From Minisyncoccota bacterium (lineage in GTDB: Bacteria; Patescibacteriota; Minisyncoccia; Phycocordibacterales; Phycocordibacteraceae), in assembly GCA_041660025.1 (NCBI GenBank), contig JBAZXD010000001.1, forward strand, positions 236,162 through 300,161: DNA of 64,000 nt, in the 5' to 3' direction. A model generated the notes under the pieces. The model searched no databases. It had not been told where the DNA came from and saw only the letters and a list, made by a program, of their open reading frames with translations. This document shows, one piece after another, positions 5,201 through 59,526 of the stretch (the stretch's first letter is position 1; every line of letters begins with the position of its first letter). The position numbers and the translations under genes are program-made.

Positions 5201-5539
5201 ATGGCGACATACGAAGAGTTCCAGAAGATTGATATACGGGTGGGAAAGATTATCGAGATACAGGATTTCCCCGAAGCACGGAAGCCTGCGTATAAGTTAA
5301 AGATCGATTTCGGCTCCGAGGTAGGACTGAAGCAGTCAAGCGTCCAAGCAGTTGGCGCGCATACGAAGGAGGAGCTGTTGAACTCTCTTGTGTGTTGTGT
5401 GGTGAACTTTCCGCCCAAACAGATCGGCCCGTTCACGTCTGAGGTGCTCACGCTCGGTTTTATGAATAACGCGGGTGCTGGCTGGGTGCTTATCGAGCCC
5501 AAGAAGGGCTCGGTAGATCTGGGGAGCAGGCTCGCCTGA
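5201..5539 (+). CDS. csaA: tRNA-binding protein (CsaA/Trbp111-like EMAP domain)
   Basis: FQKIDIRVGKIIEI...KLKIDFG... matches the tRNA-binding OB-fold family. Confidence 0.75.
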   Translation: MATYEEFQKIDIRVGKIIEIQDFPEARKPAYKLKIDFGSEVGLKQSSVQAVGAHTKEELLNSLVCCVVNFPPKQIGPFTSEVLTLGFMNNAGAGWVLIEPKKGSVDLGSRLA

Positions 5540-5547
5540 ATTAGGAT

Positions 5548-6060
5548 ATGAAGTTTATCAGCATCAACGGAAGTACCTGTTCGGGGAAGAGTAGTGTCAT
5601 CAAAGAGGTCTTGAAACAGAGAGACCACCTCTTTTATTTATCCTATGATGCCGTGAAGTGGTCGTTCTCTCACTATTCTCCGGATACGCACTTTAAAGAC
5701 GTGCATACGGTGATGCTCGCTATGGCCGAGGCGTTATGCAAAATGCAATATGACGTCATTTCAGATTCAGGGCTATTCAAGAAGTGGAGGGAAGAATTAC
5801 TCAATATACCTCGCTCTCACGGATACGATGTCGTAGAAATCAACTTGGAGTGCGATTATGAACTGCTCGCGCAGAGATTCGATGAGCGTGTGGCGGCAAA
5901 ACTTGCGAATCCTGAGATCAGAATCTCGAATCTATCAAAAAACAGATTTAAGGAACTGAACGATACCTTTCAGAAAGAAAAAAATACCTCAGCTCTGACC
6001 TTCCGGACTGATACGCAGAGCCTTGAAGAAATTTCAGAAAGCGTACTGAAGCTCTTCTGA
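5548..6060 (+). CDS. P-loop NTPase / putative nucleotide kinase
   Basis: Walker A NGSTCSGKSS; 170 aa; AT-richer than neighbours. Confidence 0.5.
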   Translation: MKFISINGSTCSGKSSVIKEVLKQRDHLFYLSYDAVKWSFSHYSPDTHFKDVHTVMLAMAEALCKMQYDVISDSGLFKKWREELLNIPRSHGYDVVEINLECDYELLAQRFDERVAAKLANPEIRISNLSKNRFKELNDTFQKEKNTSALTFRTDTQSLEEISESVLKLF

Positions 6061-6061
6061 C

Positions 6062-6301
6062 GTGCCGTACTTTGTCTATCTGCTCGAGTGCGAGGATGGG
6101 TCTCTCTATACCGGCGTCACCACCGACGTGAAGCGGCGGTTTGCCGAACATAAAAGCGGGATAGGGAGCAATTTCACGCGGGCGAAGAAGGCGAAGCGCA
6201 TCGTGTATACGGAGGAGCACCCCGACCGGAGCTCGGCGCAGAAGCGCGAGGCCGAGATCAAGCGCTGGTCGCGCGAAAAGAAACTGGCTCTGGTACAATA
6301 A
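6062..6301 (+). CDS. GIY-YIG nuclease family protein (UPF0213/YhbQ-like)
   Basis: FVYLLECEDGSLYTGVTTDVKRRFAEH...E..IK motifs; alternative start codon at 6062. Confidence 0.8.
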   Translation: MPYFVYLLECEDGSLYTGVTTDVKRRFAEHKSGIGSNFTRAKKAKRIVYTEEHPDRSSAQKREAEIKRWSREKKLALVQ

Positions 6302-6308
6302 TTTCGAT

Positions 6309-7385
6309 ATGTCTATACAAAAGCATGGGGCGTATGCGAGCGTCGCCGTGCTCGCGCTGGTCTACACCTTCGGCTATTCAGGCCTCGTCGCGTCGGAGTA
6401 CCGCTCTCCGTCTGCCGATGCGCCCGAGAAATTCATCCCACTGCCGGAGTTCGACAAGGCCGACTACAACGCGCGTCTGCTCGCGCTCGCGCACGTGGCG
6501 ACCACGACTGAGGTCGCTTCGAGCGATACCGCCTCGGTAAGCGTGATATCTACCAGTACGCCGTCTCTCTGGCCCGTAAGCGCGGCCTATCCGAACGCGG
6601 GGGCCATCCTGCCATTCAAGCGCGTTGTCGCCTACTACGGCAACTTCTACTCCCGAGGAATGGGCGTGCTCGGCGAATACCCGACCGAAGAGATGCTCGC
6701 GATGCTCGCGAGCACGACCGCGCTGTGGACCGCCGCAGACCCAAGGACGCCGGCAGTGCCGGCCATCCACTACATCGCGGCTGTGGCGCAGGCGACCGCG
6801 GGGAAGGAAGGGAAGTACATCCTCCGGATGCCGGACGACCAGATCGACCACGCGCTCGAGCTCGCGAATCGCGTGAATGGAATTGTCTTCCTCGACGTGC
6901 AGGTGGCGCTCAGCACGCTCCAGTACGAGCTCCCGATGTTGGAGAAGTATTTGAAGATGCCGAGGGTGCATCTCGGCATCGACCCGGAGTTCTCGATGAA
7001 GCACAATGAGCGGCCCGGGACCGTCATCGGCACCTTCGACGCCGCGGACATCAATTATGCCGCGCAATATCTCGCGAACATCGTCCGCGATAATCACTTG
7101 CCGCCCAAGATCCTCGTCGTGCACCGCTTCACGCAGGATATGGTAACGAATTATAAAAATATTAAACCCTTGCCGGAGGTGCAGATAGTGATAGATATGG
7201 ACGGCTTCGGCTCGAAGGAGAAGAAATACGGGACCTATACCAGAATCGTCGCGCCGGAGCCGGTGCAATTCACGGGCATCAAACTCTTCTACAAGAACGA
7301 TACGAGGCCACCCGCCAACGGCCTCCTCTCGCCGGCCGAAGTGCTCAAACTCACTCCCGCGCCGATGTATATCCAGTACCAGTGA
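6309..7385 (+). CDS. hypothetical exported protein (signal peptide)
   Basis: N-terminal hydrophobic segment; 358 aa; TGGTACAAT box at 6291-6299 lies 7 nt before the TSS. Confidence 0.55.
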   Translation: MSIQKHGAYASVAVLALVYTFGYSGLVASEYRSPSADAPEKFIPLPEFDKADYNARLLALAHVATTTEVASSDTASVSVISTSTPSLWPVSAAYPNAGAILPFKRVVAYYGNFYSRGMGVLGEYPTEEMLAMLASTTALWTAADPRTPAVPAIHYIAAVAQATAGKEGKYILRMPDDQIDHALELANRVNGIVFLDVQVALSTLQYELPMLEKYLKMPRVHLGIDPEFSMKHNERPGTVIGTFDAADINYAAQYLANIVRDNHLPPKILVVHRFTQDMVTNYKNIKPLPEVQIVIDMDGFGSKEKKYGTYTRIVAPEPVQFTGIKLFYKNDTRPPANGLLSPAEVLKLTPAPMYIQYQ

Positions 7386-7389
7386 TTCT

Positions 7390-7881
7390 ATGAATTCAGT
7401 TCCGCAATTGCTTCACGAAGTCGTCATTACGGCTATCGTCGTGAAGGACGGGAAATATTTGATTACGCGGCGCTCACCCTTGAAGAAGCGTTTTGGTGGG
7501 ATGTGGACCGTGCCGGGCGGGAAGCTCGAGACGAGCGACTACGTGAACCTGCCGAAGGATACGAAGGACTATTGGTACAACGTACTCGAACAGGTGCTCC
7601 GCAGAGAGGTGAAAGAAGAGGTTGGACTCGAGATAAAAAATATTGAGTACGTCACGTCGCTCGCGACGATTCACGCCGACGGCGCGCCGTCGCTCGTCAT
7701 CTCCTGTATGGCGGACTGGGAGAGCGGAGAAGTCCTGCTCCAGGAAAGCGAGACCGACCAATTCGCCTGGGTGTCGCTCGAAGAAGCGAAGAAATATGAG
7801 TTGCTCGACGGTATTTACGACGAGCTCTGTATGGCCGACGCGCGTCGCAGGGGCGACAGGTCGGAGTGGAAGCGTGCTTAA
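7390..7881 (+). CDS. NUDIX hydrolase
   Basis: Nudix box GGKLETSDY...REVKEEVGLEI. Confidence 0.85.
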   Translation: MNSVPQLLHEVVITAIVVKDGKYLITRRSPLKKRFGGMWTVPGGKLETSDYVNLPKDTKDYWYNVLEQVLRREVKEEVGLEIKNIEYVTSLATIHADGAPSLVISCMADWESGEVLLQESETDQFAWVSLEEAKKYELLDGIYDELCMADARRRGDRSEWKRA

Positions 7882-7885
7882 AAAG

Positions 7886-7911
7886 AGCGGCCGCGCAGGA
7901 GCGCGGCCGGT
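7886..7911. terminator. GC-rich bidirectional hairpin between the convergent NUDIX genes
   Basis: CGGCCGCGC-AGGA-GCGCGGCCG. Confidence 0.45.
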
Positions 7912-8399
7912 CAGTCAGAGTCAACGAACGGAAGGAAAGGATCTATTTTGAGAAAACCTTTCGCTTTCTCGCGATAGTACACATTTGTACGGAATTTCTC
8001 GCCTCGGATGAGTTGAGGGAGCCAGTGCGGGTCAGACTCAAGCATGCGTTCGAACGGGATCTTGTCGATATCGTGCCACTCGGGAATCATACTTTCGGTC
8101 TCGCGCGGTTCACCGCTGAAGTCGCTCGTGCGGTAGGTGTGCATTTCCATGTACGGCTCGCCGTTTCTATGGAAGGTAATAATTGCGACTTTCTTGGTCC
8201 TCGTCAGATCAAGGAAAATCCCGAATTCCTCTATAACCTCGCGAAAAAGGCATCCGAGAATCGTCCGGTCTCCGAGTTTCGGTTCAAATTTTCCTCCCGG
8301 ACCGTTCAACGTACCTTCGCCAATTTCAGGACTGCCTTGTTTCAAGCCGAGTAGAATTTGGTTTCCGCGTATGATGATTGCTAAGGTTACTATTTTCAT
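7911..8399 (-). CDS. NUDIX hydrolase (MutT-like)
   Basis: Nudix box GPGGKFEPKLGD...REVIEEFGI; start reassigned to MKIVTLAII with GGGAG SD. Confidence 0.8.
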   Translation of the reverse strand: MKIVTLAIIIRGNQILLGLKQGSPEIGEGTLNGPGGKFEPKLGDRTILGCLFREVIEEFGIFLDLTRTKKVAIITFHRNGEPYMEMHTYRTSDFSGEPRETESMIPEWHDIDKIPFERMLESDPHWLPQLIRGEKFRTNVYYREKAKGFLKIDPFLPFVDSD

Positions 8400-10898: not shown

Positions 10899-13670
10899 AT
10901 GGAATCGGCACCGAAGTTGTCCACGCCCGAAGAGGAGCTCGCGTACCTACGCGAGCAAGTCGCGCATAAGGAAGCCGAGCTTGCGGGAAGCGGCGCTCCA
11001 GAGCGGGCAACGATTATTTCAGAAACGATCCGTGAGCATCATGCGGCGCCCGCGGAGGTGCTCGCCCCCGAATATCGCATCAGTGAGGCGACGGCGAGTA
11101 GCGAGGCGGACGCGATACTCGCCGAGCTCGAGCTCGAGCTCGGCGAGGGCGCGAGCGCTATCAACAGCCTGCGCCGGACGATGGAGGAGAAGGGGATCAA
11201 GAACGCGCTCGCAGTCCTAGAGAAGCTCCGCGACCCGCACGTCGCGGACGACTTTCATCGGTATCTGGTGCGCTATGTCGCGGCGGGACTCCCGACTCCC
11301 GGACTCTCCGAGAAGACGCCGCGCTTCCAGGCGCTCCATATGACGCTCTATGAGATAGCGCTCCCGGGACCGAAGAGTACGGAACCGAACGCGCGCCAGA
11401 AGACGCTCAAGGAACTTATCTCCGCAATGGAGCAATTCTACTCTGGACTCCTCTCGGTCGGGGACGCGACGAGCGGCGAGCCGCAGTATTATGCGCTCGA
11501 GCTCGCCGTGCCCTCTGATAGTCCCGAGCTCCAGTTCTACGCGGCGGTGCCAAACGGCAAACGCAATCTCTTCGAGAAACAGCTCCTCGCGATCTTCCCC
11601 GACGCGCACCTGGTGCCACAGCCGTATGACTACAACATCTTCGCGCGCGGCGGGACATCGCTCGTCTCGACGGTGAGCTTCACCCAGAACCCGGCCCTGC
11701 CGCTGAAAGACTACACCGACTTTGATTACGACCCCATCAACGCGATTACGAACGCTTTTGCCAAGATAGAACATACGGGCGAGGGCGCGGCACTCCAGAT
11801 CATCATCGAACCGCGGGCGGAGCGGCACGTGAAGCATTACCGCAAGATCCTCCAGGCACTGCGCAAGGGAGAGAAGCATACGTCGGCGTTCAACACGCCT
11901 GAGACTATGCTCGGCGGATTCGCGCGCGATGTCGGTCGGACCTTCTTCACCAATAAGCCGAAGGACGTCGAGAAGGCGAAGGAGGCCGAGACCCGCCAGA
12001 TCGAGGCGAACAAGGCACACATCGAGCAGGTCGAGAAGAAGATCGCGGCACCGATCGTCGGCGCCACCATCCGACTTGTCGCTTCCTCCGGCAACGAACA
12101 TACCGTAGATCAAGTACTCGGCGATCTCGAGGCGGCGTTCAACCAGTTCGCGAACACACAGGGGAACCAGCTGAAATTCACCCGCGTACCGCCGCAGTCG
12201 GGTCGCGCCCGACGCGTACTCGACGACTTCTCCTTCCGCCTGCCTGATTCTTCCGCGCTCCCACTCTCGCTCCGCGAACTCACAACCATCTACCACTTCC
12301 CGCCGTCGGGCATCGAGAGCTCGCCGCATCTGAGGCAGGCGCGCTTTACCCATGCGCCCGCGTCTATGGAGCTTTCGCAGTCGGGCGCCCTGCTCGGCGT
12401 GAACTCGTATCGAGGTACCCGGACCGAGGTCCGCCTCGACCCCGAAGACCGCCTACGCCACCTCTACATCATCGGCCAGACCGGCACCGGTAAGACCGGG
12501 CTGATGAAGTCGATGATTATGCAGGATATTACCAATGGCGAGGGATGTTGCTTCATCGACCCGCACGGCTCCGACATTCTCGACATCCTCGCCGCTGTGC
12601 CGCCCGAGCGCTACAAGGACGTCATCTACTTCGACCCTGCCGACCTCTCGCGCCCCTTCGGCCTCAACTTCCTCGAGTACGACCTCTCGCGCCCGGAGCA
12701 GAAGACCTTTATCGTGAATGAGCTCCTGATGATATTCCGACGGCTCTACGGCGACGTGCCGGAGAGTATGGGTCCGGCCTTCGAACAGTATTTCCGCAAT
12801 GCGACCCTGCTTGTGATGGAGGACCCGAGTAGCGGCTCGACGATGCTCGATATCGCGCGCGTGCTCAGCAATAGCGAGTTCCGCCGCGAGAAGCTCGCGA
12901 AAAGCATGAACCCGGTCATCAACCAATTCTGGAACGAGATCGCGACAAAGGCCGGCGGCGAGGCTTCGCTCGAGAACATCGTTCCTTACATTACCAACAA
13001 GTTCGACGACTTCACCGCCAACGATTTCATCCGCCCGATCATCGGCCAGCAGGAATCCTCATTCAAGTTCCGCGACGTGATGGATACGAAAAAGATACTG
13101 CTCGTGAATCTCTCGAAGGGCCGCTTGGGGGAGAAGAACGCGAACTTGCTCGGGCTCATCATTGTCGGCAAGCTCTTTATGGCGGCGCTCTCGCGCGCCG
13201 ACAACCCGCGCGCGCCGTATCCGCCGTTCTATCTGTATATCGACGAATTTCAGAACGTTACTACCGACTCCATCCCCGGCATTCTTTCCGAAGCACGCAA
13301 GTACAAGCTCGCGCTCACGGTTGCGCACCAGTTCTTGAGCCAGATAGAAGAGAAGACGCGCGATGCGGTCTTCGGCAACGTGGGCAATATGGCGGCCTTC
13401 CGCGTCGGGGAGGAAGACGCCGAATTCTTCGCTAAGCAGTTCGCACCGGTCTTCGAGTCGCTCGACTTCGTCAATATCGAGAACCGGAACGCGTATGTGA
13501 AGATACTCGCGCACGGCATTCCGCAAAAGCCCTTTGATATGAAGACGGTTGATCTGCCGATGCTGAATTTGGCGCAGATAGACGACCTTATCCGCCTCTC
13601 CTCGCTCACCTACGGCCGCGACCGTGCTACAGTTGAACATATGATTCGCGAGCGTTATCTCTCGCAGTAA
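10899..13670 (+). CDS. VirD4/TraG/TraD-family P-loop ATPase (type IV secretion coupling protein-like), no TM segments
   Basis: Walker A GQTGTGKTG, CFIDPHGSD (VirD4 DPKGE-like), Walker B YLYIDEFQN, LTVAHQFLSQIEE...FGN; 923 aa. Confidence 0.65.
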   Translation: MESAPKLSTPEEELAYLREQVAHKEAELAGSGAPERATIISETIREHHAAPAEVLAPEYRISEATASSEADAILAELELELGEGASAINSLRRTMEEKGIKNALAVLEKLRDPHVADDFHRYLVRYVAAGLPTPGLSEKTPRFQALHMTLYEIALPGPKSTEPNARQKTLKELISAMEQFYSGLLSVGDATSGEPQYYALELAVPSDSPELQFYAAVPNGKRNLFEKQLLAIFPDAHLVPQPYDYNIFARGGTSLVSTVSFTQNPALPLKDYTDFDYDPINAITNAFAKIEHTGEGAALQIIIEPRAERHVKHYRKILQALRKGEKHTSAFNTPETMLGGFARDVGRTFFTNKPKDVEKAKEAETRQIEANKAHIEQVEKKIAAPIVGATIRLVASSGNEHTVDQVLGDLEAAFNQFANTQGNQLKFTRVPPQSGRARRVLDDFSFRLPDSSALPLSLRELTTIYHFPPSGIESSPHLRQARFTHAPASMELSQSGALLGVNSYRGTRTEVRLDPEDRLRHLYIIGQTGTGKTGLMKSMIMQDITNGEGCCFIDPHGSDILDILAAVPPERYKDVIYFDPADLSRPFGLNFLEYDLSRPEQKTFIVNELLMIFRRLYGDVPESMGPAFEQYFRNATLLVMEDPSSGSTMLDIARVLSNSEFRREKLAKSMNPVINQFWNEIATKAGGEASLENIVPYITNKFDDFTANDFIRPIIGQQESSFKFRDVMDTKKILLVNLSKGRLGEKNANLLGLIIVGKLFMAALSRADNPRAPYPPFYLYIDEFQNVTTDSIPGILSEARKYKLALTVAHQFLSQIEEKTRDAVFGNVGNMAAFRVGEEDAEFFAKQFAPVFESLDFVNIENRNAYVKILAHGIPQKPFDMKTVDLPMLNLAQIDDLIRLSSLTYGRDRATVEHMIRERYLSQ

Positions 13671-13675
13671 ACCGT

Positions 13676-15664
13676 ATGGCAAAAAGAATCGATTTTCCGC
13701 CGCCACCACTTCCACGAGGAGAGAATGACGAGCTCTTATCTTCTCCGGATTCACCCGAGAAAAATCGACGGGCCTTTGCCAAGATTGAACAAGGTTCCGA
13801 TGAACCTGCTGTTCAAGTGGAGACGAAGCCGGGACTCGCGTGGACGGAGCCGGAACCGAGCGCGCCGGCAGGACGTGAAAGAAAAAAGCCGGAGGCTCCT
13901 GTTGATGCCGAACATCTCGTTCAAGTGGAGACTAAGGAGCCAGCGACTGTTGATGCCAAACCTCTCGTCCAAGTGGAGACTAAGGCGGCAAAAGCGACTG
14001 ATGAACCAGCAGGATTTGATAGCAGAATAGAACCGACGTTTGGAGCCGAACTAGGAGAACCAGGAGAGCCAATACAAGCAACGGAAATGACCCCGGGCGA
14101 ATCCCTTACGTTGCTGAGCAAGCTTATCGAAGGATACAAGAAGACATTGGAGGTTACGAAAAATGTAACGGAAGGAGTTTTAGAACGCTTCACGAAATCA
14201 AAGGAGTATCTGAACAATCGGGCAAAAGAGATTGACGCCCAGGCCGAAACGAGCGGTCTGGAGAAGGCATTCCGCGTCATCGGCGAAAAATACAATAAAT
14301 TAAATTTGGTACACAAACTCGGCATCGGCGTTGCGCTCGGAGTCGGAACGGCGGTCGGCTCGGCGGTTTCGCTCCCGCTCGCGCTCGCTGGTTTGTCGGG
14401 TTTGATATTGCAGCGCGCGGCGGGTACGGCGGGCATGTTCGTGAGCATTGAAAAGAAGCTTCAAGAAAAGAAGGTTGACGAGTCGTTCCAATTCATGGCG
14501 ACGAAAGAACGCGCTGCACTCGATGCAATGCTGTATACCTTCGCAATGAGCACTGCCATCAATCAGGGGCTGGAATTCGTTCGCGAACATCATCTCGTGG
14601 AGCAAACACGCGAGTGGTGGCTCGGCGATAAGCTCGGGCACAGCACGGCCCCGACAGGGGGTTCCGGGCTACACCAGCCCGCGGCCGTCTCGAACGCGGG
14701 CGAGGCGATCGCGCAAGCCACGACTCCCGAAGTACCGGCGGTCGTGGTTCATGCATCGAGCGGGCACGGCTACGAGTATATGGTGAAGCGAATGTGGGAA
14801 GATTTGCAAGAGAGACAGCTCGACCCGAGCAAGTATGCGGAAGGAAGCGACATTCGCCGATTGCTTGAAGCCGATGCAAGCTCGATCGACAAGGTCGTGC
14901 ATCAAATCGCCGCCGACCCCTCTCACGGATTTTTCAATCCTGACGGCACGAGCGCGGTCATACGCCCCACCGACGCCCTCACCGTCGGCGCGAACGGCCA
15001 GGTGCTCCTTATGACTCCGGACGATGTCATTGCGCATGCGCCCGTCGGAGGGCCGACGACGCCGGCATATCATCCATCTGCAGTTGAACAGGCGCCATAC
15101 CCGGACGGGATTGTACCGCCTGATACTTCACCCGCCGCGCTTGAGGATCAAGAAGCGGGAACTCCCCTCGAAACTCCCGAGACCGAGTCGCCTGAAGCCC
15201 CGCCGCCGCTTCAGGAAGTGAATGTCGTTTCGCCAGAGCCGATAAAAACAGTGGACCTCACACACGAGCAAGATGTCGCAGATTCTGAAAATGCTGTCGT
15301 CCATTCGGAAGCCGTTTCAGAAGCACCTACCTTCATGACGAAAATCGATGGCATTCTCATTGATCCGCGGACCCCGGCGATTTATCAGGCTCAGCTGCCG
15401 ACGGGAGAAACGTATCTAGCCTCTTATGGCGGAAGCTATGAAGAGCGACTCAAATTCATCCAGGAATATTTGATGCGTCCCGAGAACCAAGGACAGACAA
15501 TTCGTATCGCTCACGAAGTGCCCTCGATCCTCGGTCCTCAAATCAAAGTGGATGAGATCGGCGCCAGTACGAACGCGGGGCAAACGTCGTGGATCCTTGA
15601 TTTCTTCAAAAAACCGGTATCCCCGCCGACGCCGGAGACTTTCCTGAAAAAATTATCCAAGTAA
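13676..15664 (+). CDS. acidic/Pro-rich repeat protein with a central TM segment
   Basis: Three LVQVETK repeats (nt ~13800-14010); hydrophobic stretch GIGVALGVGTAVGSAVSLPLALAGLSGLIL; 662 aa. Confidence 0.55.
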   Translation: MAKRIDFPPPPLPRGENDELLSSPDSPEKNRRAFAKIEQGSDEPAVQVETKPGLAWTEPEPSAPAGRERKKPEAPVDAEHLVQVETKEPATVDAKPLVQVETKAAKATDEPAGFDSRIEPTFGAELGEPGEPIQATEMTPGESLTLLSKLIEGYKKTLEVTKNVTEGVLERFTKSKEYLNNRAKEIDAQAETSGLEKAFRVIGEKYNKLNLVHKLGIGVALGVGTAVGSAVSLPLALAGLSGLILQRAAGTAGMFVSIEKKLQEKKVDESFQFMATKERAALDAMLYTFAMSTAINQGLEFVREHHLVEQTREWWLGDKLGHSTAPTGGSGLHQPAAVSNAGEAIAQATTPEVPAVVVHASSGHGYEYMVKRMWEDLQERQLDPSKYAEGSDIRRLLEADASSIDKVVHQIAADPSHGFFNPDGTSAVIRPTDALTVGANGQVLLMTPDDVIAHAPVGGPTTPAYHPSAVEQAPYPDGIVPPDTSPAALEDQEAGTPLETPETESPEAPPPLQEVNVVSPEPIKTVDLTHEQDVADSENAVVHSEAVSEAPTFMTKIDGILIDPRTPAIYQAQLPTGETYLASYGGSYEERLKFIQEYLMRPENQGQTIRIAHEVPSILGPQIKVDEIGASTNAGQTSWILDFFKKPVSPPTPETFLKKLSK

Positions 15665-15668
15665 TGAT

Positions 15669-15977
15669 ATGATTCCACCTATGCAAGACGAACTGACCGC
15701 GCTCATTGCCGCCGATCTCGGCATCAAGGACCTCCCCGTTGAAGAACAGAAGGCGCTCATCGCGCAGTTCGGCGAAGTGGCGCTCAAGGCCGCGACACTC
15801 GCTGTGGTAGAGAAGCTTGCGGCGAGCAGTCGCGACGAATTCGCAAAGCTCGCGGAGGCGGGCGATGCAGCCGCTCTCAAGACGTTCTTGGACCGCGAAG
15901 TTCCCGGGCATGAGGAGGCGGCGAAAGCCGCAGTTGCCGAGGAGGTGAAGCGGTTCAAGGCCTTTCAAGCCGTGTAG
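15669..15977 (+). CDS. hypothetical alpha-helical protein
   Basis: 102 aa; Ala/Glu/Lys rich. Confidence 0.5.
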   Translation: MIPPMQDELTALIAADLGIKDLPVEEQKALIAQFGEVALKAATLAVVEKLAASSRDEFAKLAEAGDAAALKTFLDREVPGHEEAAKAAVAEEVKRFKAFQAV

Positions 15978-16603: not shown

Positions 16604-17269
16604 TTACCTGGGCAGAGGGGGAAGGTACCCTCTCTGCATTCTGGAGTACGTCGGTTCCGGCGCGTCAGAGACTTCCGGGAGCAGCGCACCACCGACATAG
16701 AGCGGAGCGATCCAGATGCGTTTGAGCTTGCCTTCAAGCTCATCCGCCTTATAGACCATCCCGGTCATACAGTAGCCCTGGAGCACAGCGACCGCCGTTT
16801 CCCAGGTTATCTTGCCGCTCCCGAGCCCGCCGCCGAAGGCCGTGAGGCCGATAGCAATAAGGTAGTCCACCGGTTGTATCAAGCTGCCAAAGCCCAGCCG
16901 GTAGCCGAGTGCCCCGAGAGAACCCTGGAATCCGCCGTAGGTCGAGCCCTGCTTGAGCATCTCGTTGAATTCGCCCTCCATTTCACCGGCCTTCTTGGCA
17001 CAGTACCAGTCGAACTGGCTGATGGCGGTGTATTCCTCGGGAGTCAATTTCGGGTCCGGATTGAAGTTCGCACCAGAACCCGGGTAGATGAGCACCTTGT
17101 ACCGGCTGGTGAACTGCTTGGCCGGCACCTCGGCCGCTGTCGTCGTAATCTTCGGTGGAGTAGCTTCTGCCGCTCCTCCGCGCATCGTACTCGGCGTGTA
17201 TGCAACACACGCGCTGAGTGACATGATACTCGCCAAAATGGCGATCAAACGTAGTGTTCTCATGGTCAA
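16604..17269 (-). CDS. hypothetical lipoprotein
   Basis: Signal peptide with lipobox LSAC; 221 aa. Confidence 0.6.
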   Translation of the reverse strand: MTMRTLRLIAILASIMSLSACVAYTPSTMRGGAAEATPPKITTTAAEVPAKQFTSRYKVLIYPGSGANFNPDPKLTPEEYTAISQFDWYCAKKAGEMEGEFNEMLKQGSTYGGFQGSLGALGYRLGFGSLIQPVDYLIAIGLTAFGGGLGSGKITWETAVAVLQGYCMTGMVYKADELEGKLKRIWIAPLYVGGALLPEVSDAPEPTYSRMQRGYLPPLPR

Positions 17270-21442: not shown

Positions 21443-21523
21443 CGTTCTCTGCGACGTTGTGTGCATCCATCTCGTGTTCATCCGCCGGCCCAAAGATATT
21501 CTGGGGTCGGCGTTCTCTTTTTG

Positions 21524-21532
21524 TGGTACAAT
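21524..21532 (+). promoter_or_regulatory. extended -10 TGGTACAAT upstream of uvrA
   Basis: Followed by a ~32-nt leader containing the CCTGCCC-N6-GGGCAGG hairpin (21543-21562). Confidence 0.35.
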
Positions 21533-21570
21533 CCACCTCGTACCTGCCCCGCCACGGGCAGGAAATTTGC

Positions 21571-24267
21571 ATGCCAAAACCCCTTAAATCAACAGCAAAA
21601 GAGGAGCCCCGCGAGATAGCCGCAGACGGCATCTCACGGGGTAGACGCCAGCACAAGCACGGGAGCGACTGGCTCCGCGTGAAGGGTGCGCGCACCCATA
21701 ATCTAAAAAATATTTCAGTAGAGATGCCGCGCGGCGCGATGACGGTCATCACCGGTCTCTCGGGGAGCGGGAAGTCCTCTCTCGCCTTCGACACTATCTT
21801 TGCTGAGGGTCAGCGGCGTTATGTCGAATCGCTCTCCGCCTACGCGCGCCAATTTTTGAACCAGATGGCGAAGCCGGACGTGGACGAGATCGTCGGCCTC
21901 TCGCCCGCGATTTCTATAGACCAGAAGAGCCGTTCCAATAATCCGCGCTCCACAGTCGCCACCGTCACCGAAATCTATGACTACCTGCGCGTGCTCTACG
22001 CGCGCGCGGGCCAGCCGTACTGCATCCACCACGACGTGCCCATCGTCCGGCTCTCCAAGGAAGAGATGATTAAGATGGTGTTCGCGCGCGTGGAGGCGAA
22101 ACGGAAGGTGAGTAGCACGAGTGTCATGGGCGTCGCCGTCGATAAAACTGCGGTGACTATCTACGCGCCGGTCGTCGTCGGGAGAAAGGGCGAATACTAT
22201 CAGCTTCTCTACGACCTCCTCGGCAAGGGATACGAAAAGGTCGTCGTGGACGGGAAAGTGCACTCGCTGCGCGAGAAGATAGTTATGGAGCGCAATAAGA
22301 TGCACAGCATCGATGCGGTCGTCGACAGTATTTTCGTTTCTGAATTTGCGCGCACGACTGCGGGCGCGCGCGAGCGGCTCTCGGAGGCGCTTGAGCTGGC
22401 GCTGAAGCAGGCGGACGGCCTGGTGAAGATCAAGCACGCCGACGGCACGCTCGAGACGCTCTCGTCGAAGTTTATCTGTCCCGACGACGGCGCGTCGTTC
22501 CCAGAAGTGGAACCACGCCTGTTCTCCTTCAACTCGCCCTACGGAGCGTGCCCGGCCTGCCACGGTCTCGGCACCGAATCGCTTTTCTCCGAAGAGGTGT
22601 GTCCGGTCTGCGAAGGGAAGCGTCTCCGCCCCGAAGCGCTCCGCGTGTATCTCAAGAGCAAAAAAGATAAGACGCTCGGGAAAAGCATTGTGGATTTCAC
22701 CAATATGTCGATACGGGAGGCGAAGGAGTTCGTCGATTCCATCGAGCTCTCGGAAATGAAGAAAGATATCGCCGCACCTATTCTCAAAGAGATCGATGCT
22801 CGTCTGACCTTTATGCTCAACGTCGGCCTTGATTACCTTACGCTCAACCGCTCGGCGGCGACGCTCTCCGGCGGAGAAGCTCAGCGCATCCGGCTCGCCT
22901 CTCAGCTCGGGAGCGGGCTCACGGGCGCGCTCTACGTGCTCGACGAGCCGACCATCGGGCTCCATCAGCGCGACAATGACCGCCTCATCAAGACACTGCT
23001 CATATTGAAAGAGCTTGGGAATACCATCATTGTCGTGGAGCATGATGAAGAGACCATTTTCTCCTCCGATTATTTGATAGATATCGGTCCTGGCGCGGGT
23101 GTGCACGGCGGAAATGTTGTCGTGTCGGGTTGGCTTGATGACCTCTTGAAGGCGAAGGAAAACGAGAGCGGCTCGCTCACGCTCGCGTATATACGGGAGG
23201 AAAAAGAAATTCCCGTGCCGGAGACGCGCCGCACGAGCGAGAAGGGCTGGCTGAAAGTGCGCGGCGCGACGTTGCATAATCTCGTGAACCAGAATGTCGA
23301 TGTACCACTCGGAAAACTTGTCTGCATTACGGGCGTCTCGGGGAGCGGGAAGTCCACGTTCTTGTATGACATTCTGCACCGCAATATTGCCAGCAGATTC
23401 GCTCGCCGCGAAGCGAAACTTGAACACGTCGCTTCGCTTACCGGCACTGAATACGTCGGCCGCGCGGTACTCATCGACCAGTCGCCTATCGGCCGCACGC
23501 CGCGCTCTAATCCCGCGACCTACACCGGCGCCTTCACCCACATCCGCGACCTCTTCGCCGCCACTTCCGAGTCCCGCGCGCGGGGCTGGAAGCCGGGGCG
23601 ATTCTCCTTCAACGTCCCGGGCGGTCGCTGTGAAGCCTGTCAGGGCAACGGTTCTATCGCGGTGGAGATGCACTTCCTCCCGACGGTATACGTTACCTGC
23701 GACATCTGTATGGGTAAACGTTTTATGAAGGAAACGCTTGAAGTGACGTTCCGCGGCAAGAACATCTACGATGTACTCCAGATGACGGTGGAGGAGGCGG
23801 AGAAATTCTTCGGCGATATCCCGGCAATCGCCGATCGCCTGATGAGCCTGAACTCGACCGGGCTCCAGTACCTCACGCTCGGCCAGAGTGCGACGACGCT
23901 CTCGGGCGGGGAAGCTCAGCGCGTGAAGATAGCGAGCGAGCTGTACCGCTCGATGCCGATGAAGACCATCTATCTCCTCGACGAGCCGACGGTCGGTCTC
24001 CACTACGAGGATGTGAAGAAGCTCATCGAGATACTGCAGGAGCTCGTGCGGCGCGGGAACACGGTCGTCGTCATCGAGCACAATCTCGATGTCATCAAGA
24101 GTTCAGATTACGTCATTGACTTCGGCCCCGAGGGTGGTGCCGGCGGCGGTAAAATCATCGCGAAAGGCACGCCCGAAGAAGTCGCCGATACCGAAGGTTC
24201 CTACACGGGCGAGTATCTGGAGAAAGTTCTCCGACGCCATGCAAAAAAGCAACCTACAAAGGAGTAA
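21571..24267 (+). CDS. uvrA: excinuclease ABC subunit A
   Basis: Two ABC ATPase modules ([23 protein letters not shown]), zinc-finger Cys clusters, LSGGEAQR signatures. Confidence 0.97.
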
Positions 24268-25483
24268 TCTGCCGGATGTGCCGGGCGTGTACCTCTTCAA
24301 GCAGGGGAGGAAAGTCTTGTACGTGGGCAAAGCGACGTCGCTCCGCGACCGCGTGCGAAGCTACTTTGACGATGACCTGATTGCGACGCGGGGGCCGCGC
24401 GTGGTGGATATGGTGACGAAGGCCGACCGCGTCGCGTTTGAAGCGACACCGACGGTGCTCGAGGCGCTCGTGCGCGAGGCGGCGCTCATCAAGAAGTACC
24501 TGCCGCACGCGAATGTGGATGGAAAGGACGACAAAACCTTTCTCTACGCGGTCATCACGCAGGAAGATATTCCGCGCGTGCTCGTCGTGCGCGGGAAGGA
24601 TCTGGATTTTAAGGCGAAACGAACGAGCGACGGACAGAAACTGAAGGCGCTTTACGGTCCGTTTCCGTCGGGGGCGCAGCTACGCGAGGGTCTGCGGCTT
24701 ATTCGACGCATCTTTCCATTTTTCGACACGCCGAAGCCGGTCGGGGTAAAAAGCAAACATCAGATAGCGCAGATAGAATTTAATACGCAGATTAAGCAGT
24801 ATCCACGCAGTTTCGATGCGAGAGAGTATCGGCGCACCATACGTCATGTGATGCTTTTCCTCAGCGGTCGCGGGAAAGAATTGCGCGTGACGCTTGAGAA
24901 AGAGATGCGGCAGGCGGCTCGAGAAGAACGTTTCGAAGACGCGGCAACCGCAAGGCGCGAACTCTTCGCACTCGACCACATCCAGGACGTCTCGCTCATC
25001 AAGGACGAGAGCCTCGAGGACGCGCGGCGCACAGCGGCGCGCGGAGTGCGCATCGAGGCCTATGACACGGCGCACCTCTCGGGCACGAACGCCATCGGCG
25101 TAATGACGGTTCTCATTGACGGCGTACCGAGTAAAAAAGAGTATCGAACTTTTAATATTCGCGGTGTAAAGAAAAATGATGACATAGCATCTCTGAAAGA
25201 AATTCTCTCACGTCGGCTCGCACATCCCGAATGGTCACTTCCGAGCGCCATCGTCGTGGACGGCGGTACGACACAGAAGAAAACGGCGGAAGCGGTTTTG
25301 AAGGAAGCCGGAGTTGTCATACCGGTTGCCGCAGTCGTGAAGGATGAGCGGCACCGTCCGCGTGAAGTCATCGCCGCAAGGGCGGCCCGCGTCTCCGAGG
25401 CGGACGCGGTTCTCGCGAATGCCGAGGCGCATCGTTTTTCGCTCGCGCGGCACCGCGCTATGCGTTCAAAAAGCCTACAGTAA
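24239..25483 (+). CDS. uvrC: excinuclease ABC subunit C, short form (no C-terminal HhH)
   Basis: GIY-YIG LPDVPGVYLF..VLYVGKA; UvrBC-homology region; RNase H-like domain IEAYDTAHLSGTN; overlaps the uvrA 3' end by 29 nt. Confidence 0.8.
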   Translation: MQKSNLQRSNLPDVPGVYLFKQGRKVLYVGKATSLRDRVRSYFDDDLIATRGPRVVDMVTKADRVAFEATPTVLEALVREAALIKKYLPHANVDGKDDKTFLYAVITQEDIPRVLVVRGKDLDFKAKRTSDGQKLKALYGPFPSGAQLREGLRLIRRIFPFFDTPKPVGVKSKHQIAQIEFNTQIKQYPRSFDAREYRRTIRHVMLFLSGRGKELRVTLEKEMRQAAREERFEDAATARRELFALDHIQDVSLIKDESLEDARRTAARGVRIEAYDTAHLSGTNAIGVMTVLIDGVPSKKEYRTFNIRGVKKNDDIASLKEILSRRLAHPEWSLPSAIVVDGGTTQKKTAEAVLKEAGVVIPVAAVVKDERHRPREVIAARAARVSEADAVLANAEAHRFSLARHRAMRSKSLQ

Positions 25484-27006: not shown

Positions 27007-27082
27007 GGGCCCTTAGCTCATCTGGTAGAGCGCCTCATTTGCAATGAGGAGGTAAGCGGTTCAAGTCCGCTAGGGTCCACCA
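27007..27082 (+). tRNA. tRNA-Ala (TGC), CCA encoded
   Basis: G3:U70, acceptor GGGCCCT/AGGGTCC, anticodon loop TTTGCAA. Confidence 0.85.
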
Positions 27083-27153
27083 AAGTTTTTGATTACATTC
27101 GGCTTTCCAATCTGGGAATCTAATCGGATATCTGCTATGGTAAAGTTGTGCTC

Positions 27154-27227
27154 GCGCTCCTAGCTCAGTTGGTTAGAGCGTACGCTTCACACGCGTAAGG
27201 TCGCAGGTTCGATCCCTGCGGAGCGCA
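27154..27227 (+). tRNA. tRNA-Val (CAC)
   Basis: Acceptor GCGCTCC/GGAGCGC, anticodon loop TTCACAC. Confidence 0.8.
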
Positions 27228-27246
27228 CACGGGAGGTGTTCTGTGT

Positions 27247-27317
27247 CGGGCCGGAGTATGCCGGTAGTACGTACGATTCGGGTTCGTATAGACCGGGTTC
27301 GATTCCCGGCGGCCCGA
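27247..27317 (+). tRNA. tRNA-Pro (CGG)
   Basis: Acceptor CGGGCCG/CGGCCCG, anticodon stem TACGA/TCGTA with loop TTCGGGT. Confidence 0.75.
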
Positions 27318-27413
27318 CAGAGAACGTCTCCTAACGCGGGCTATAAGTAAGCTTGTATCTCCGCGTTCCGGAGAGAATAATCACGAGAAGACTCGTGTTA
27401 TTCTTCCTCCACG

Positions 27414-27484
27414 CGGGCTATCGTATAATGGTAGTACGCATGGCTGGGGGTCATGCAGCCTGGGTTCGATTCCCAGTAGCCCGA
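27414..27484 (+). tRNA. tRNA-Pro (GGG)
   Basis: Acceptor CGGGCTA/TAGCCCG, anticodon loop CTGGGGG. Confidence 0.75.
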
Positions 27485-27607
27485 TGAAAATAATTTTCGA
27501 GCGTGGTAGCATATTCCGCACGGGCCCGTATCTTCGCGGACTCGATACAGAACCCTCGTTCGGAGAAACTGAACGAGCGAAGACGTTCATTCAGTTTTCC
27601 TCACTTC

Positions 27608-27680
27608 GGGCCCGTAGCTCATCTGGTAGAGCGCGTCATTCGCATTGACGAGGTAAGCGGTTCAAGTCCGCTCGGGTCCA
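27608..27680 (+). tRNA. tRNA-Ala (CGC)
   Basis: G3:U70, anticodon stem CGTCA/TGACG with loop TTCGCAT. Confidence 0.85.
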
Positions 27681-27882
27681 CATAATAGGAAAGCGCAACA
27701 AAACGGCCACTTCTGGCTTGTACTTTCCCGCTGTGTGGTCTATTCTTGAAATAGCTCGGACTTTCGCCGCCGGTGGGGTGGTGGCGAGTACCTCTGCTGA
27801 AAACCGCAAAAGAGCCCGAGGAAACATCGGCTCGAACCGTGTAGTGTGAGGAAAAGAAAATTTCTTATTCATACAATTCAAT

Positions 27883-28515
27883 ATGAAACGAACTTTCAAA
27901 ATTGGTGGAGTAATAATACTTGTTTTACTTTTGAGCGGAGGTTTCATTCGTTGGTTTTTTTCTCCTTTTTTCACATCAGACGAATGTAAGTACTATCAAG
28001 AAAGACTTGCATCTAGAGCTTGTTATGCACTTGATGGCACAATAATACCTATTGCTGAACAGCCAGGCACCATGTTCACAATTCGTTATGATTACGCTTT
28101 CGGAATGGGACCGGGTTGGAGTGCGTACTCAGAAAAAGAATCTAACGGACAAGCACGGTTTTGGACCTATCTTAATCCCCACACAACACTCCCTATATCC
28201 ACCGACGGGACTCGGTATATTGCGCTCTACTATGTTGGCGACAATCAAAGCGGGAAAGATAATCTGTATTTAGGACTCTTTTCTCTTCCGACTTCCGCCA
28301 GAGGACCATTTACATATCAGGACGCGGTTCTTGTTGGAAGTGGTAAAAGAAGTCATTTATCCCACACCACTTTCGAACAGAGGAGTGATGGTGTGATACA
28401 AGTGTCTTACAAAGTAACTCGCTTTGTAGATGATGCTCAACCACAATTGCAGACTGTTCTAGAGGACACGGTGCTTTACCAGATAATTGGCGATAAAATA
28501 CAGGAAATTCAATAG
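27883..28515 (+). CDS. hypothetical signal-anchored/secreted protein in an AT-rich cassette within the tRNA cluster
   Basis: 210 aa; N-terminal TM GGVIILVLLLSGGFI. Confidence 0.5.
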   Translation: MKRTFKIGGVIILVLLLSGGFIRWFFSPFFTSDECKYYQERLASRACYALDGTIIPIAEQPGTMFTIRYDYAFGMGPGWSAYSEKESNGQARFWTYLNPHTTLPISTDGTRYIALYYVGDNQSGKDNLYLGLFSLPTSARGPFTYQDAVLVGSGKRSHLSHTTFEQRSDGVIQVSYKVTRFVDDAQPQLQTVLEDTVLYQIIGDKIQEIQ

Positions 28516-28748
28516 AAATTGTACACAGGTGATACCTGTAGATGGATATGTTAGGAGTACAATATACTCATGCAACAAATGTCCTTGCGACAGTAGGCGA
28601 TGAAACTTCGTCAGAAGGGAAAACGTATTCTGAAATAGAAAGCTTTAGTTGAAGGGGTCTATGGTGTAGCGGTAACGCGTGACTATGGCATAATCGAATC
28701 TCGGGCTCGATTATCCCTAGGTCCACCGTGCGTCGGAAAGAAGGGAAT

Positions 28749-28824
28749 GGGCCCTTAGCTCATCTGGTAGAGCGCGTCCATGGCATGGACGAGGTGACCG
28801 GTTCAAGTCCGGTAGGGTCCACCA
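28749..28824 (+). tRNA. tRNA-Ala (GGC), CCA encoded
   Basis: G3:U70, anticodon stem CGTCC/GGACG with loop ATGGCAT. Confidence 0.85.
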
Positions 28825-44285: not shown

Positions 44286-45683
44286 ATGGTCTCGCTCCCG
44301 TATTTGCACGAACTCCACAAGCTGAAAGATACTATCACTGGTCGGTTCGGCATCCGTTTCGACCCGTGGACGCTTCTCGCTCCAGGATTGATACTCATCG
44401 CCCTCGCGTATGTGCTTATGCCGGGTCCGATCTCCTTCGCCTTCTCGATCGCGCTATTCCTGTCTCCCGTGTGGCTACCGTTCCTTATCATAGGTGGAGC
44501 AGTGAAATTATGGTATGTTCTCGGACGCTCGGAGTTCATCGCGAAACAAAAGTACGTCCTCCTCGAAATAAAGCCGCCGCGCAATCTGGTAAAGACGCCG
44601 CTCGCGATGGAGGCCTTCCTCTCAGCTATCCATCTTACGGGCGGCGAGTCGACCTGGTACGCGCGCTTCAAGGGCGGCATCCGGCCCTTCTACTCTCTCG
44701 AAATGGCTTCGTTCGAGGGGCAAGTGCATTTTTTCATATGGGGGCGCGCGAATTTGCGCAGGATCATAGAGGGGCAAATGTACGCGCAATATCCGGGTGT
44801 GCAGGTGGTTGAGGCGCCTGACTATACCCGGCTCATATCCGCGGATCCGGATGAGTGGGGCGTTTGGGGGTGCGATTTTGCGGCGACGGGGAAGAATCCT
44901 CTCCCTATCAAGACTTATATCGAATACGGACTCGATAAAGTACAAAAGGAGCCGGAACAGGTCGACCCGCTCGCAAACCTTGTCGAATTCTTGGGTTCCA
45001 TTGGGAAGGGGGAAAATATCTGGCTCCAATTCGTTATTCGTGCGCATCAGGGCGAACGGTATGGTCCCAGCCCGGGCGGCAAAGAGGGCGTGAGAAAAAA
45101 CGCCGAAGGGAAGACCTACACCTGGAGGGACGAAGGGAAAGAGCTGATCGAAGAGATACGCAAGAAAGCGCGCAATCCGTACATAGATCCGGCGACTGGC
45201 GAGGAACGGCCGGGATTCCCGAACCCGACTAAAGGAGAATCGGAGCTTATGGCCGCCATCGACCGCAATACCACGAAGCTCGCCTATGACGTGGGCGTGC
45301 GCGGCGTCTATATCGCTAGGCCGGAAAAATTCAACGTGGCCGCTATCACGCATATGATAGGTCTCTTCAAGCCGTTCACCAACACCGGCTGGAACGGTAT
45401 CAATTCGATAAAATGGATGAAGCGGTTCGACGATTATCCGTGGGAGATCGGCGTCGAAAAAAGAAAAAAGCATTATCGCGAAAAACTCATCGAGGCGTAT
45501 CGCCGCCGCCAATTCTTTTATGATCCATTTTTCCACGACGGCCTCTTCGGGGACGAAACGATGATATTGAGCACTGAGGAGCTCGCGACCATCTATCACA
45601 TCCCTTCGCAATCCGTCCAGTCGCCGAGCCTCACGCGTATCCAGTCGGCGACCAGCGAGGCTCCCGTCAATCTCCCGACCTAG
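44286..45683 (+). CDS. hypothetical membrane protein (N-terminal TM helices, large soluble domain)
   Basis: 465 aa; no recognised family. Confidence 0.55.
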   Translation: MVSLPYLHELHKLKDTITGRFGIRFDPWTLLAPGLILIALAYVLMPGPISFAFSIALFLSPVWLPFLIIGGAVKLWYVLGRSEFIAKQKYVLLEIKPPRNLVKTPLAMEAFLSAIHLTGGESTWYARFKGGIRPFYSLEMASFEGQVHFFIWGRANLRRIIEGQMYAQYPGVQVVEAPDYTRLISADPDEWGVWGCDFAATGKNPLPIKTYIEYGLDKVQKEPEQVDPLANLVEFLGSIGKGENIWLQFVIRAHQGERYGPSPGGKEGVRKNAEGKTYTWRDEGKELIEEIRKKARNPYIDPATGEERPGFPNPTKGESELMAAIDRNTTKLAYDVGVRGVYIARPEKFNVAAITHMIGLFKPFTNTGWNGINSIKWMKRFDDYPWEIGVEKRKKHYREKLIEAYRRRQFFYDPFFHDGLFGDETMILSTEELATIYHIPSQSVQSPSLTRIQSATSEAPVNLPT

Positions 45684-55918: not shown

Positions 55919-56959
55919 ATGAGTTTCTTCGGGGATTTTTTTCGTACACAACGGACAGAATCGGTCGCGCTGATCGATATCGGCGCCGCTTCGGTCGCGG
56001 GCGCCTATGTGCAGTACGCTCCCGATACGCAGCCCGTCCTGCTCTACACGCGCCGCTTGCCGATCGAGCGACGAGACCGAGAGACGCACGAGCGCGCTAT
56101 GTTCCGCGCGCTCGAGGTGCTCGGTGCCGCTCTTATCCGCGAGGGAGCGCCGGCGCTCCTGCGCGCCACCGGCAGCGGAAGTATCAATGCCGTGCTCGTA
56201 TCGGTGGACGCGCCGTGGCAAAAGACGTCGATACGGACGGAATATTTCGAACGGAAAACGCCGTTCACCTTCAGTAAGAAACTGGTCTCTGCGGCGCTTG
56301 AGAAGACGAGTGCGGCGGCGCCCGGGGAGCTCCTCGTCGATGAGAGCATCATCGGCACTATCCTCAATGGCTACGAGACCCGCGACCCGTACGGGAAGGA
56401 GGTGCATCGCGCCTCCGTCGTCATCCTGACATCGCGGATTGACGAGCATGTTGCGGGCGGCATCACCTCGCTTATGCGAAGCCTGTATCACACCAAGCAT
56501 ATCCTCTCTATTGCCGGCAGCTCACTACGCTATCAGGCAATGCGTATTGCATTCCCGCACGAGCGCGAGGCGCTCATTCTCGACGCGACCGGACCGCTCA
56601 CCTCTCTCGCGCTCGTGCGCAGAGACCTCCTTGTCGATGTGGTCAATGTCAGGAGTCATACGAACGGCACCCATGCGTGGCTGAAGGAGGTCTTGGACGA
56701 GCTGGCGGAGCTGGCGGAGAAGTTCCCGCTCCCGCGCACCATATTCCTTCTCGCGCCCGCATCAGAGATCGAATCTCTGCGGAAGATGCTCGACACGACG
56801 GATCTGGGGAAGCTCTGGCTTTCGGACAACCCCCCGAAGATAGTCTCTGTTATGGGGAGCCACCTCAGCGGCCTGGTGCGGCAGGCGACTACCGCCTCTC
56901 CCGACCTCTCACTCCTCCTTATGGCGCTGTACTTCCGGCACCGTAATCCCGAAGGGTAG
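55919..56959 (+). CDS. actin-like ATPase (FtsA/PilM family?)
   Basis: VALIDIGAASVAGAYV and LILDATGPLTSLALV resemble ASKHA phosphate motifs; weak. Confidence 0.35.
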   Translation: MSFFGDFFRTQRTESVALIDIGAASVAGAYVQYAPDTQPVLLYTRRLPIERRDRETHERAMFRALEVLGAALIREGAPALLRATGSGSINAVLVSVDAPWQKTSIRTEYFERKTPFTFSKKLVSAALEKTSAAAPGELLVDESIIGTILNGYETRDPYGKEVHRASVVILTSRIDEHVAGGITSLMRSLYHTKHILSIAGSSLRYQAMRIAFPHEREALILDATGPLTSLALVRRDLLVDVVNVRSHTNGTHAWLKEVLDELAELAEKFPLPRTIFLLAPASEIESLRKMLDTTDLGKLWLSDNPPKIVSVMGSHLSGLVRQATTASPDLSLLLMALYFRHRNPEG

Positions 56960-57016
56960 CCCCGGAGGGGACAACTATTTCCAAACTTGCAATACGAGGT
57001 GCTATACTCTCCGCAT

Positions 57017-59073: not shown

Positions 59074-59076
59074 TTT

Positions 59077-59511: not shown

Positions 59512-59526
59512 TCTTTTACTGCCAGT

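Follow-up and report, generated by a model that had tools for sequence, protein, structure and literature searches.

VirD4/TrwB-type coupling proteins (T4CPs) of type IV secretion systems (T4SSs), such as TrwB of R388, TraD, DotL and Cagβ, typically possess an N-terminal transmembrane (TM) domain of two helices, and small helical partners are known for some of them, namely CagZ for Cagβ and IcmS/IcmW for DotL. VirB4 (TrwK of R388) contacts VirB3 and VirB8 through its N-terminal domain (NTD), as seen in R388 structures. Patescibacteria, which may represent a large share of bacterial diversity, depend on other cells, and their exchange of macromolecules is largely unknown. The three genes considered here, designated A, B and C, lie in a 64,000-nt stretch of DNA, referred to as the window, from a Minisyncoccota bacterium (assembly GCA_041660025.1, contig JBAZXD010000001.1, positions 236,162 to 300,161). 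Gene A encodes an ATPase that an earlier note on this DNA had taken for a plain cytoplasmic VirD4-like protein. The present analysis points to a hybrid: A would be a Patescibacteria-specific motor of the VirB4/VirD4 clade, which joins a VirB4-type N-terminal domain to a VirD4/TrwB-type nucleotide-binding domain (NBD) and works at the membrane with partners that include B and C. The probability of this reading is put at about one half.

Gene A (10899-13670, + strand) is an open reading frame (ORF) of 923 codons, of which residues 497-923 (12387-13667, +) form a RecA-like NBD of the VirB4/VirD4/HerA clade. All five VirD4-type motifs quoted in the earlier note are present: GQTGTGKT at aa 526-533 (Walker A, 12474-12497, +), IDPHGSD at aa 553-559, YIDEFQN at aa 780-786 (Walker B, 13236-13256, +), HQFLSQ at aa 810-815 and FGN at aa 825-827. 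The Walker motifs are intact, and the catalytic motifs are invariant across the A family. A public protein identical to A (P0001) is annotated with PF26449 (DUF8128), PF01935 (DUF87) and PF12696 (TraG-D_C), and according to precomputed Pfam matches all 120 of the 120 closest homologues carry PF26449, mostly together with PF01935 and/or PF12696. A local scan of A gave 25.5 bits for TraG-D_C (cut-off 22), and DUF87 also exceeded its cut-off. The best NCBIfam matches, SXT_TraD (6e-14) and the VirD4-like CD1115 model (2.7e-9 over aa 516-840), both remained under their equivalog cut-offs. In this C-terminal domain, which differs from VirB4 proteins such as TrwK in this respect, the NCBIfam VirB4 models matched the P-loop only (E 0.005-0.024; 12-15 bits against cut-offs of 590-643), and the Pfam VirB4 families CagE_TrbE_VirB and VirB4_CagE gave no match on A. 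A family profile built from 63 diverse homologues and compared with PDB sequences ranked the coupling proteins TrwB (1.8e-7) and DotL (6.6e-6) ahead of HerA (1.6e-3). Another VirD4-type feature is the all-alpha domain inserted in the NBD (aa 601-730, 12699-13088, +). On sequence grounds, the ATPase domain of A groups with the VirD4/TrwB coupling proteins, as the earlier note had proposed, and the match to HerA, which would have spoken against that proposal had it been the better one, was weaker.

The N-terminal half of A has a different affinity. An AlphaFold2 model made with 63 homologues (pLDDT 89.9, pTM 0.81) comprises three blocks: helices at residues 10-128, an alpha/beta region at about 148-465, and the ATPase from residue 497 with its helical insertion. 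The middle block corresponds to DUF8128 (aa ~146-470, 11334-12308, +), of which the conserved polar residues in A are E201, D278, Q300, K381, R392 and H466-F-P468. In a Foldseek search with the N-terminal domain of A, all 13 matches with E<=1e-3 were TrwK chains, and the next match had an E of 0.03. A sequence search of DUF8128 against the PDB returned no meaningful match. Judging from the predicted structure, residues ~146-470 have the fold of the VirB4 N-terminal domain. What remains of the plain cytoplasmic VirD4 protein is therefore the VirD4-type ATPase; the N-terminal ~480 aa consist of a fused partner protein, described below, and the VirB4-NTD-like fold, so that A is a VirB4/VirD4 hybrid. 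Compared with the T4CPs named above, A has this domain of ~330 aa and the fused partner instead of a two-helix TM domain. Compared with VirB4, its N-domain has no detectable sequence similarity, and the gene does not adjoin VirB3, VirB6 or VirB8.

The first 135 residues (10899-11303, +) constitute a helical extension with the motifs PEEELAYLREQV and DPHVADDFHRYL, recognised by a hidden Markov model (HMM) match and in the structural model. A contains no TM-grade hydrophobic segment, the sole stretch with KD19 >1.5, which starts at aa 747, being part of the ATPase fold. The lack of N-terminal TM helices reported in the earlier note thus holds for this protein but not for its family. Most members, at ~800 aa, have a single TM helix at the N-terminus, immediately ahead of DUF8128, whereas in the ~920-aa subfamily that includes A the TM-less helical extension replaces this helix. 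Directly upstream of the TM-type A genes, a separate gene encodes an acidic protein of 125-148 aa with the motif GI..AV..A..L.DPY.LD.FHD.L. An HMM built from 17 of these separate proteins matches residues 11-124 of A at E 2e-11, the search space being the 6,715 ORFs called in the loci retrieved. GTDB species representatives supplied 80 loci in which ORFs were called; most of these are labelled as Patescibacteria lineages, and for a minority the labels (Bdellovibrionales, Gammaproteobacteria, Bacillota) are generic or evidently assigned automatically. The same HMM also matches the N-termini of 41 long-form homologues. Among 82 loci, the small partner is fused in 41 and separate in 21, and the other 20 mostly have a short upstream sequence or a truncated or split A. 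Pfam yielded just weak DUF5663 matches for the small partner and for eight B-like or C-like proteins. Residues 1-135 of A are, by the HMM match, a fused copy of the small acidic partner. One TM helix being the usual state in the family, the TM-less state of A is derived: the partner became joined to the N-terminus and the helix disappeared.

Some members of the wider family deviate from these two layouts. At E<1e-30, a library clustered at 50% identity yielded about 5,300 relatives of A. Among those that lack DUF8128, the closest are 44-46% identical to A over the ATPase domain and exceed the cut-offs of TrwB_AAD_bind and T4SS-DNA_transf. In two ATPase-domain relatives outside the DUF8128 family, P0219 and P0237, a long TM-less region is preceded by additional sequence at the N-terminus. 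Pfam recognises a response-regulator receiver domain there in P0219 (2.2e-14), and the N-terminal sequence of P0237 is similar. By its annotated domains, the P0219 type is an unusual fusion of a signalling input to a coupling-protein engine. The N-regions of T4CP relatives from outside the Patescibacteria (P0231 group) were considered as diverged DUF8128 domains, which an hhalign probability of 0.2 does not support. Within the DUF8128 family, P0174, P0178, P0180 and the product of L004 8001-14021 reach 1,200-2,000 aa by means of Pro/Ala-rich low-complexity C-terminal tails, and such long-tailed proteins end in a conserved motif of ~20 aa, KL.PGE[VI][YF][VI]D..GNV. The idea that the tails are fused copies of B was rejected, the 1,200-aa Pro/Ala tail of P0180 showing no similarity to B. 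In locus L062, the gene at 94-1410, immediately ahead of the small partner and a TM-type A homologue, encodes a type IV pilin-like protein with an N-terminal methylation motif and a Laminin_G_3 lectin domain. Further conserved neighbours of the TM-type homologues were sought and proved heterogeneous (PMT_2 glycosyltransferase, Na/H exchanger, the pilin-like lectin, ClpB).

Genes of the class to which A appears to belong have been surveyed before. In that survey, 5,713 VirD4-type T4CP homologues occur in 2,918 of 3,035 Patescibacteria genomes (96%) and VirB4 in 2,417 (80%) (Quinonero-Coronel et al. 2025, PMC12102498). The homologues are described there as orphans identified by matches to VirD4 profiles, mostly far from virB4, and their exaptation is regarded by the authors as possible. 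The A family probably corresponds to these homologues. No mention of DUF8128 or a VirB4-like N-domain, of one-TM as against fused-partner forms, of the small partner, or of B-like and DUF5663 neighbours was found in the portions of the survey that were consulted, and a full-text literature search returned nothing on DUF8128 or DUF5663. The gene class is thus already known; no description was found of the hybrid domain layout, of the partner in its fused or separate form, or of the B-like/DUF5663 neighbours.

The survey bears on the reading that A is the dedicated coupling protein of a chromosomal Patescibacteria T4SS, with its N-domain docking on an inner-membrane complex of the VirB3/VirB6/VirB8 type encoded elsewhere (near dnaA) to deliver substrates, B and C being substrates or adaptors. 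A T4CP-type ATPase would suit this role, as would an N-domain with the fold that contacts VirB3 and VirB8 in R388, and an essential T4SS cluster of Patescibacteria has been reported without a recognisable coupling protein (Wang et al. 2023, PMC10633639). The distribution fits less well: in the surveyed set, only 148 of the 5,713 t4cp homologues lie near virB4, the homologues are found in more genomes than VirB4 (96% against 80%), and the homologue of Southlakia epibionticum, the architecture of which was not compared with that of A, is reported as non-essential, whereas the T4SS genes are essential (PMC12102498). The genomic surroundings do not supply the missing components either. VirB4, relaxase, pilin and comEC genes are absent from the 40 larger window ORFs (including A, B and C) scanned against Pfam, in agreement with the earlier note as regards the first three. 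No T4SS, relaxase or mating-pair formation (Mpf) gene was found among the genes called in L001, L002 and L104-L106, or among 20 flanking ORFs scanned in L018, L027, L048, L053, L056, L060-L063, L065, L068 and L071. A differs from typical T4CPs in this absence of a relaxase or Mpf gene from the scanned ORFs nearby, and also in its chromosomal location, a stable place amid housekeeping genes in those relatives that were examined. The VirB4-like domain of the model argues for a T4SS-like mode of docking, but the distribution data argue against an obligate coupling of A to a T4SS, and a dedicated coupling protein is regarded as a rather unlikely alternative.

The preferred reading, a motor that works with partners including B and C, draws on the genes downstream of A. 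Gene B (13676-15664, +) comprises 662 codons and gene C (15669-15977, +) 102. All three genes share the + strand, 5 nt separating A from B and 4 nt B from C, and they look like one operon. A scan for promoters and terminators gave no signal beyond shuffled expectation. B is acidic (pI 4.9), with Pro/Glu/Ala-rich low-complexity sequence at aa 1-135 and 451-560 and a Gly/Ala-rich hydrophobic segment at aa 215-246 (14318-14413, +; KD19 up to 1.89); the central hydrophobic segment and the Pro/Glu-rich regions described in the earlier note are both recovered here. The tandem repeats fared less well. Three copies of VQVETK do exist in the N-terminal low-complexity region (aa 46-103, 13811-13984, +), starting at aa 46, 82 and 98, but only the last two, 16 aa apart, are near-tandem, and the repeats are lineage-specific, being neither aligned nor conserved in B orthologues. 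TRF detected no tandem array underlying them at the DNA level.

The conserved parts of B lie elsewhere. The hydrophobic segment, flanked by EKYNKL on its N-terminal side and QRAAGTAG on its C-terminal side, is the conserved core of B-like proteins, and residues E204, Y206, K214 and R247 are invariant in 34 homologues. The best-conserved region is aa 360-445 (14753-15010, +), which reads GHGYEYMVKRMWEDLQ...SDIRRLLEAD...VVHQIA...HGF...DGTS; its columns G363-I429 are nearly invariant among homologues. Searches of B, including this region, against PDB sequences gave no meaningful match. The 47 homologues detectable by sequence are 480-999 aa long and 28-65% identical, and they contain no Pfam domain except a genuine N-terminal DnaJ (J) domain in P0279 and P0290, which implies that the N-terminus of B is cytoplasmic. 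Between the window and the syntenic loci L001 and L002, B is 30-34% identical by tblastn and 26-31% by global alignment. The corresponding identities are 80-83% for A, 69-81% for C, 78-81% for TGT, 59-63% for FKBP and ~90% for UvrB. By this comparison, B is a rapidly diverging outlier amid conserved neighbours, and A is conserved at housekeeping level. Exceptional conservation of A had been considered and was rejected, since A only matches TGT in identity and falls below UvrB.

The product of gene C is acidic, with a high content of Ala, Glu and Leu. The 102-aa ORF listed in the earlier note is present, but the public annotation gives 98 aa, and the second ATG may be the start codon. PF18908.7 (DUF5663; precomputed) is assigned to public protein P0321, the sequence of which equals C aa 5-102, and an older local DUF5663 model gave 19.4 bits on C, under its cut-off of 23.7. 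C is, by this annotation, a member of the DUF5663 family. Its comparison with the PDB by sequence search gave no meaningful match.

The order A-B-C is found in the window and in L001, L002, L005, L010, L028 and L104-L106, and three of three contigs looked up because they code for a B homologue have the arrangement A-B-C-FKBP-TGT-UvrB. In four distant loci (L009, L047, L076, L082), A is succeeded by a gene for a large acidic TM protein, and this by one for DUF5663. In four others (L054, L057, L059, L069), a large B-like protein, DUF5663, the small partner and a TM-type A follow one another, tightly packed. The distant large proteins share the core of B, namely E.YN.LP..K, a Gly/Ala-rich hydrophobic stretch and then R...G. 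Co-conservation of the three genes, on which the earlier note had made its proposal depend, is hence partial: it is strict in the Kaiserbacteria-like clade and recurs in another gene order in some distant lineages, but most other relatives have flanks without it. Two Nomura/Taylor-type loci, L018 (4018-12654) and L027 (3922-12466), illustrate a different setting, in which the A homologue follows adk (L018) or map (L027), with ndk and genes for a small TM protein and an RNase J-like protein beyond it, a core housekeeping context that includes neither B nor C. A 423-aa ORF with 10 TM segments upstream of adk in Nomura/Taylor-type loci fits SecY by size and position only.

Such contexts could also be expected if A were a stand-alone housekeeping translocase or helicase for nucleic acids, HerA/FtsK-like, that takes part in chromosomal processes such as repair or segregation, with B and C as unrelated syntenic neighbours. 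The gene lies beside uvrBAC here and after secY-adk-map elsewhere (secY again by size and position), it is near-universal in the phylum, and the flanks of most relatives lack B and C. Yet T4CPs rank above HerA in the sequence profiles, and the search with the N-domain gave VirB4, not HerA. A has neither the HAS-barrel N-domain and the NurA-type nuclease partner that go with HerA nor the four-helix TM domain and gamma domain of FtsK. FtsK itself is named in a transcriptome study on the Saccharibacterium TM7x. The TM-helix anchor of most family members and the recurrence of B-like and DUF5663 proteins beside A in two gene orders likewise disagree with a solitary chromosomal enzyme, which is held to be decidedly improbable.

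If A is instead the membrane-associated hybrid motor proposed above, its mode of action may be outlined as follows. In most of the phylum, the motor would be tethered by its one N-terminal TM helix and co-transcribed with the acidic helical partner of ~140 aa. In the lineage of the window, where the partner is fused and the TM helix lost, the motor would be soluble alone and would have to reach the membrane through partners. B, which appears membrane-embedded, of low complexity, fast-evolving and cytoplasmic at its N-terminus, could tether or scaffold the motor at the membrane, or it could be its client. C, the DUF5663 protein, might act as adaptor or regulator, much like CagZ for Cagβ and IcmS/IcmW for DotL. 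The motor, assumed to be a hexameric ring, would then use ATP hydrolysis to drive a polymer, either protein or nucleic acid, at the cytoplasmic face of the membrane, and it might feed a chromosomal T4SS or work alone. The link to DNA uptake or a host interaction suggested in the earlier note is conjectural.

Several points weigh against this proposal. Structural scores for the ATPase domain of A do not discriminate between VirD4 and either HerA or VirB4, and the assignment of the VirB4 NTD is made at the level of the fold, from predicted structures and with no signal in the sequence. Because the Kaiserbacteria-like clade is syntenic throughout, the A-B-C adjacency there carries little weight. 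The homology of the window B to the distant B-like proteins is just transitive: a leave-out HMM matched the L010 orthologue at 3.8e-8 and gave no match to the window B. DUF5663 occurs within 7 kb of A in 16 of 82 loci, and most long-form relatives (Nomura/Taylor types) have A with neither B nor C nearby. A channel-forming partner was not identified. The scarcity of t4cp homologues near virB4 and the non-essential homologue of S. epibionticum, both taken from the survey, belong here as well.

A bolder version would make the DUF8128 proteins a distinct, undescribed class of T4SS-superfamily ATPases, intermediate or recombinant between VirB4 and VirD4, which together with the small partner, a B-like scaffold and DUF5663 form a stand-alone, near-universal, T4SS-independent translocation apparatus moving DNA or proteins at the host interface. 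So far-reaching a proposal appears unlikely. The VirB4 docking-domain fold, the obligate small partner (fused here) and the recurrent fast-evolving membrane protein with DUF5663 nevertheless provide testable hypotheses on a phylum-wide machine, and the hybrid architecture bears on the divergence of VirB4 and VirD4.

Distant relatives of A also exist outside the cellular chromosome. Bacillus phage 0105phi7-2 gp033, phage G gp156 and phrog_5156 ("DNA helicase or translocase") are proteins of ~850 aa with 21-24% identity to A, with which they align from aa ~200-250 to the C-terminus, that is, over part of DUF8128 and the ATPase. In contrast to A, they lie in a mobile-element context beside RepA/ParA-type partition genes and have no B or DUF5663. 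The 0105phi7-2 gene is at 5524-8067 of OQ317942.1 (L107), and its depositors note an HHpred match to TrwK. Such homologues in Bacillus phages and phage-plasmids (1e-62 for phrog_5156) would agree with an origin of A as a remnant of an integrated conjugative element or a phage-plasmid gene, or with a HerA-type anti-phage defence ATPase, in each case with no current cellular role. ATPase-domain relatives that adjoin relaxases, among them a DUF8128-less one near a Replic_Relax relaxase, could be cited in the same sense, as could the PADLOC model mad8, which matches the ATPase core of A only (2.6e-13), and weak HerA/DndH matches; PADLOC returned nothing for B and C. The surroundings of the gene speak against such an origin. 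There is no integrase, relaxase, flanking repeat or GC shift (GC of the locus 0.58-0.60; window range 0.46-0.63, typically 0.54-0.60), nor does a nuclease, Sir2 or methylase gene accompany A. Rather than a variable island, this is a conserved, syntenic locus with a stable chromosomal position across many genera, housekeeping-level identity, purifying selection and invariant catalytic motifs, and a scan of viral contigs gave ATPase-domain relatives only. A remnant or defence gene is accordingly considered extremely improbable.

The window as a whole is ordinary housekeeping chromosome of Kaiserbacteria-like Patescibacteria, public proteins identical to its own being annotated as Candidatus Paceibacterota and close relatives as Kaiserbacteria. 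Besides A, B and C, it encodes NUDIX, DsbA-like, ZIP, DedA/VTT and FKBP proteins, TGT, uvrB-uvrA-uvrC, ddl, tRNAs, ATP synthase, ychF, leuS, alaS, rpoA, and DUF5671 and DUF5663 proteins. The genes uvrB, uvrA and uvrC are contiguous. The longest uvrC ORF (24089-25483) begins within uvrA (21457-24267), of which it shares the last 179 nt (24089-24267), and the true start of uvrC is probably downstream of that of the longest ORF. Between ddl and the ATP synthase operon lies a cluster of six tRNA genes (27007-28824): Ala-TGC, Val-CAC, Pro-CGG, Pro-GGG, Ala-CGC and Ala-GGC. Sizeable ORFs without a Pfam match are located at 6309-7385 (+), 16604-17269 (-), 44286-45683 (+), 55919-58231 (+) and 58741-59973 (-). 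The first two have genes of similar size at matching positions in L001, L002, L104 and L106, as judged by size and position only. The second, which encodes 221 aa between FKBP and TGT, begins with a hydrophobic stretch ending in Cys and is a possible lipoprotein.

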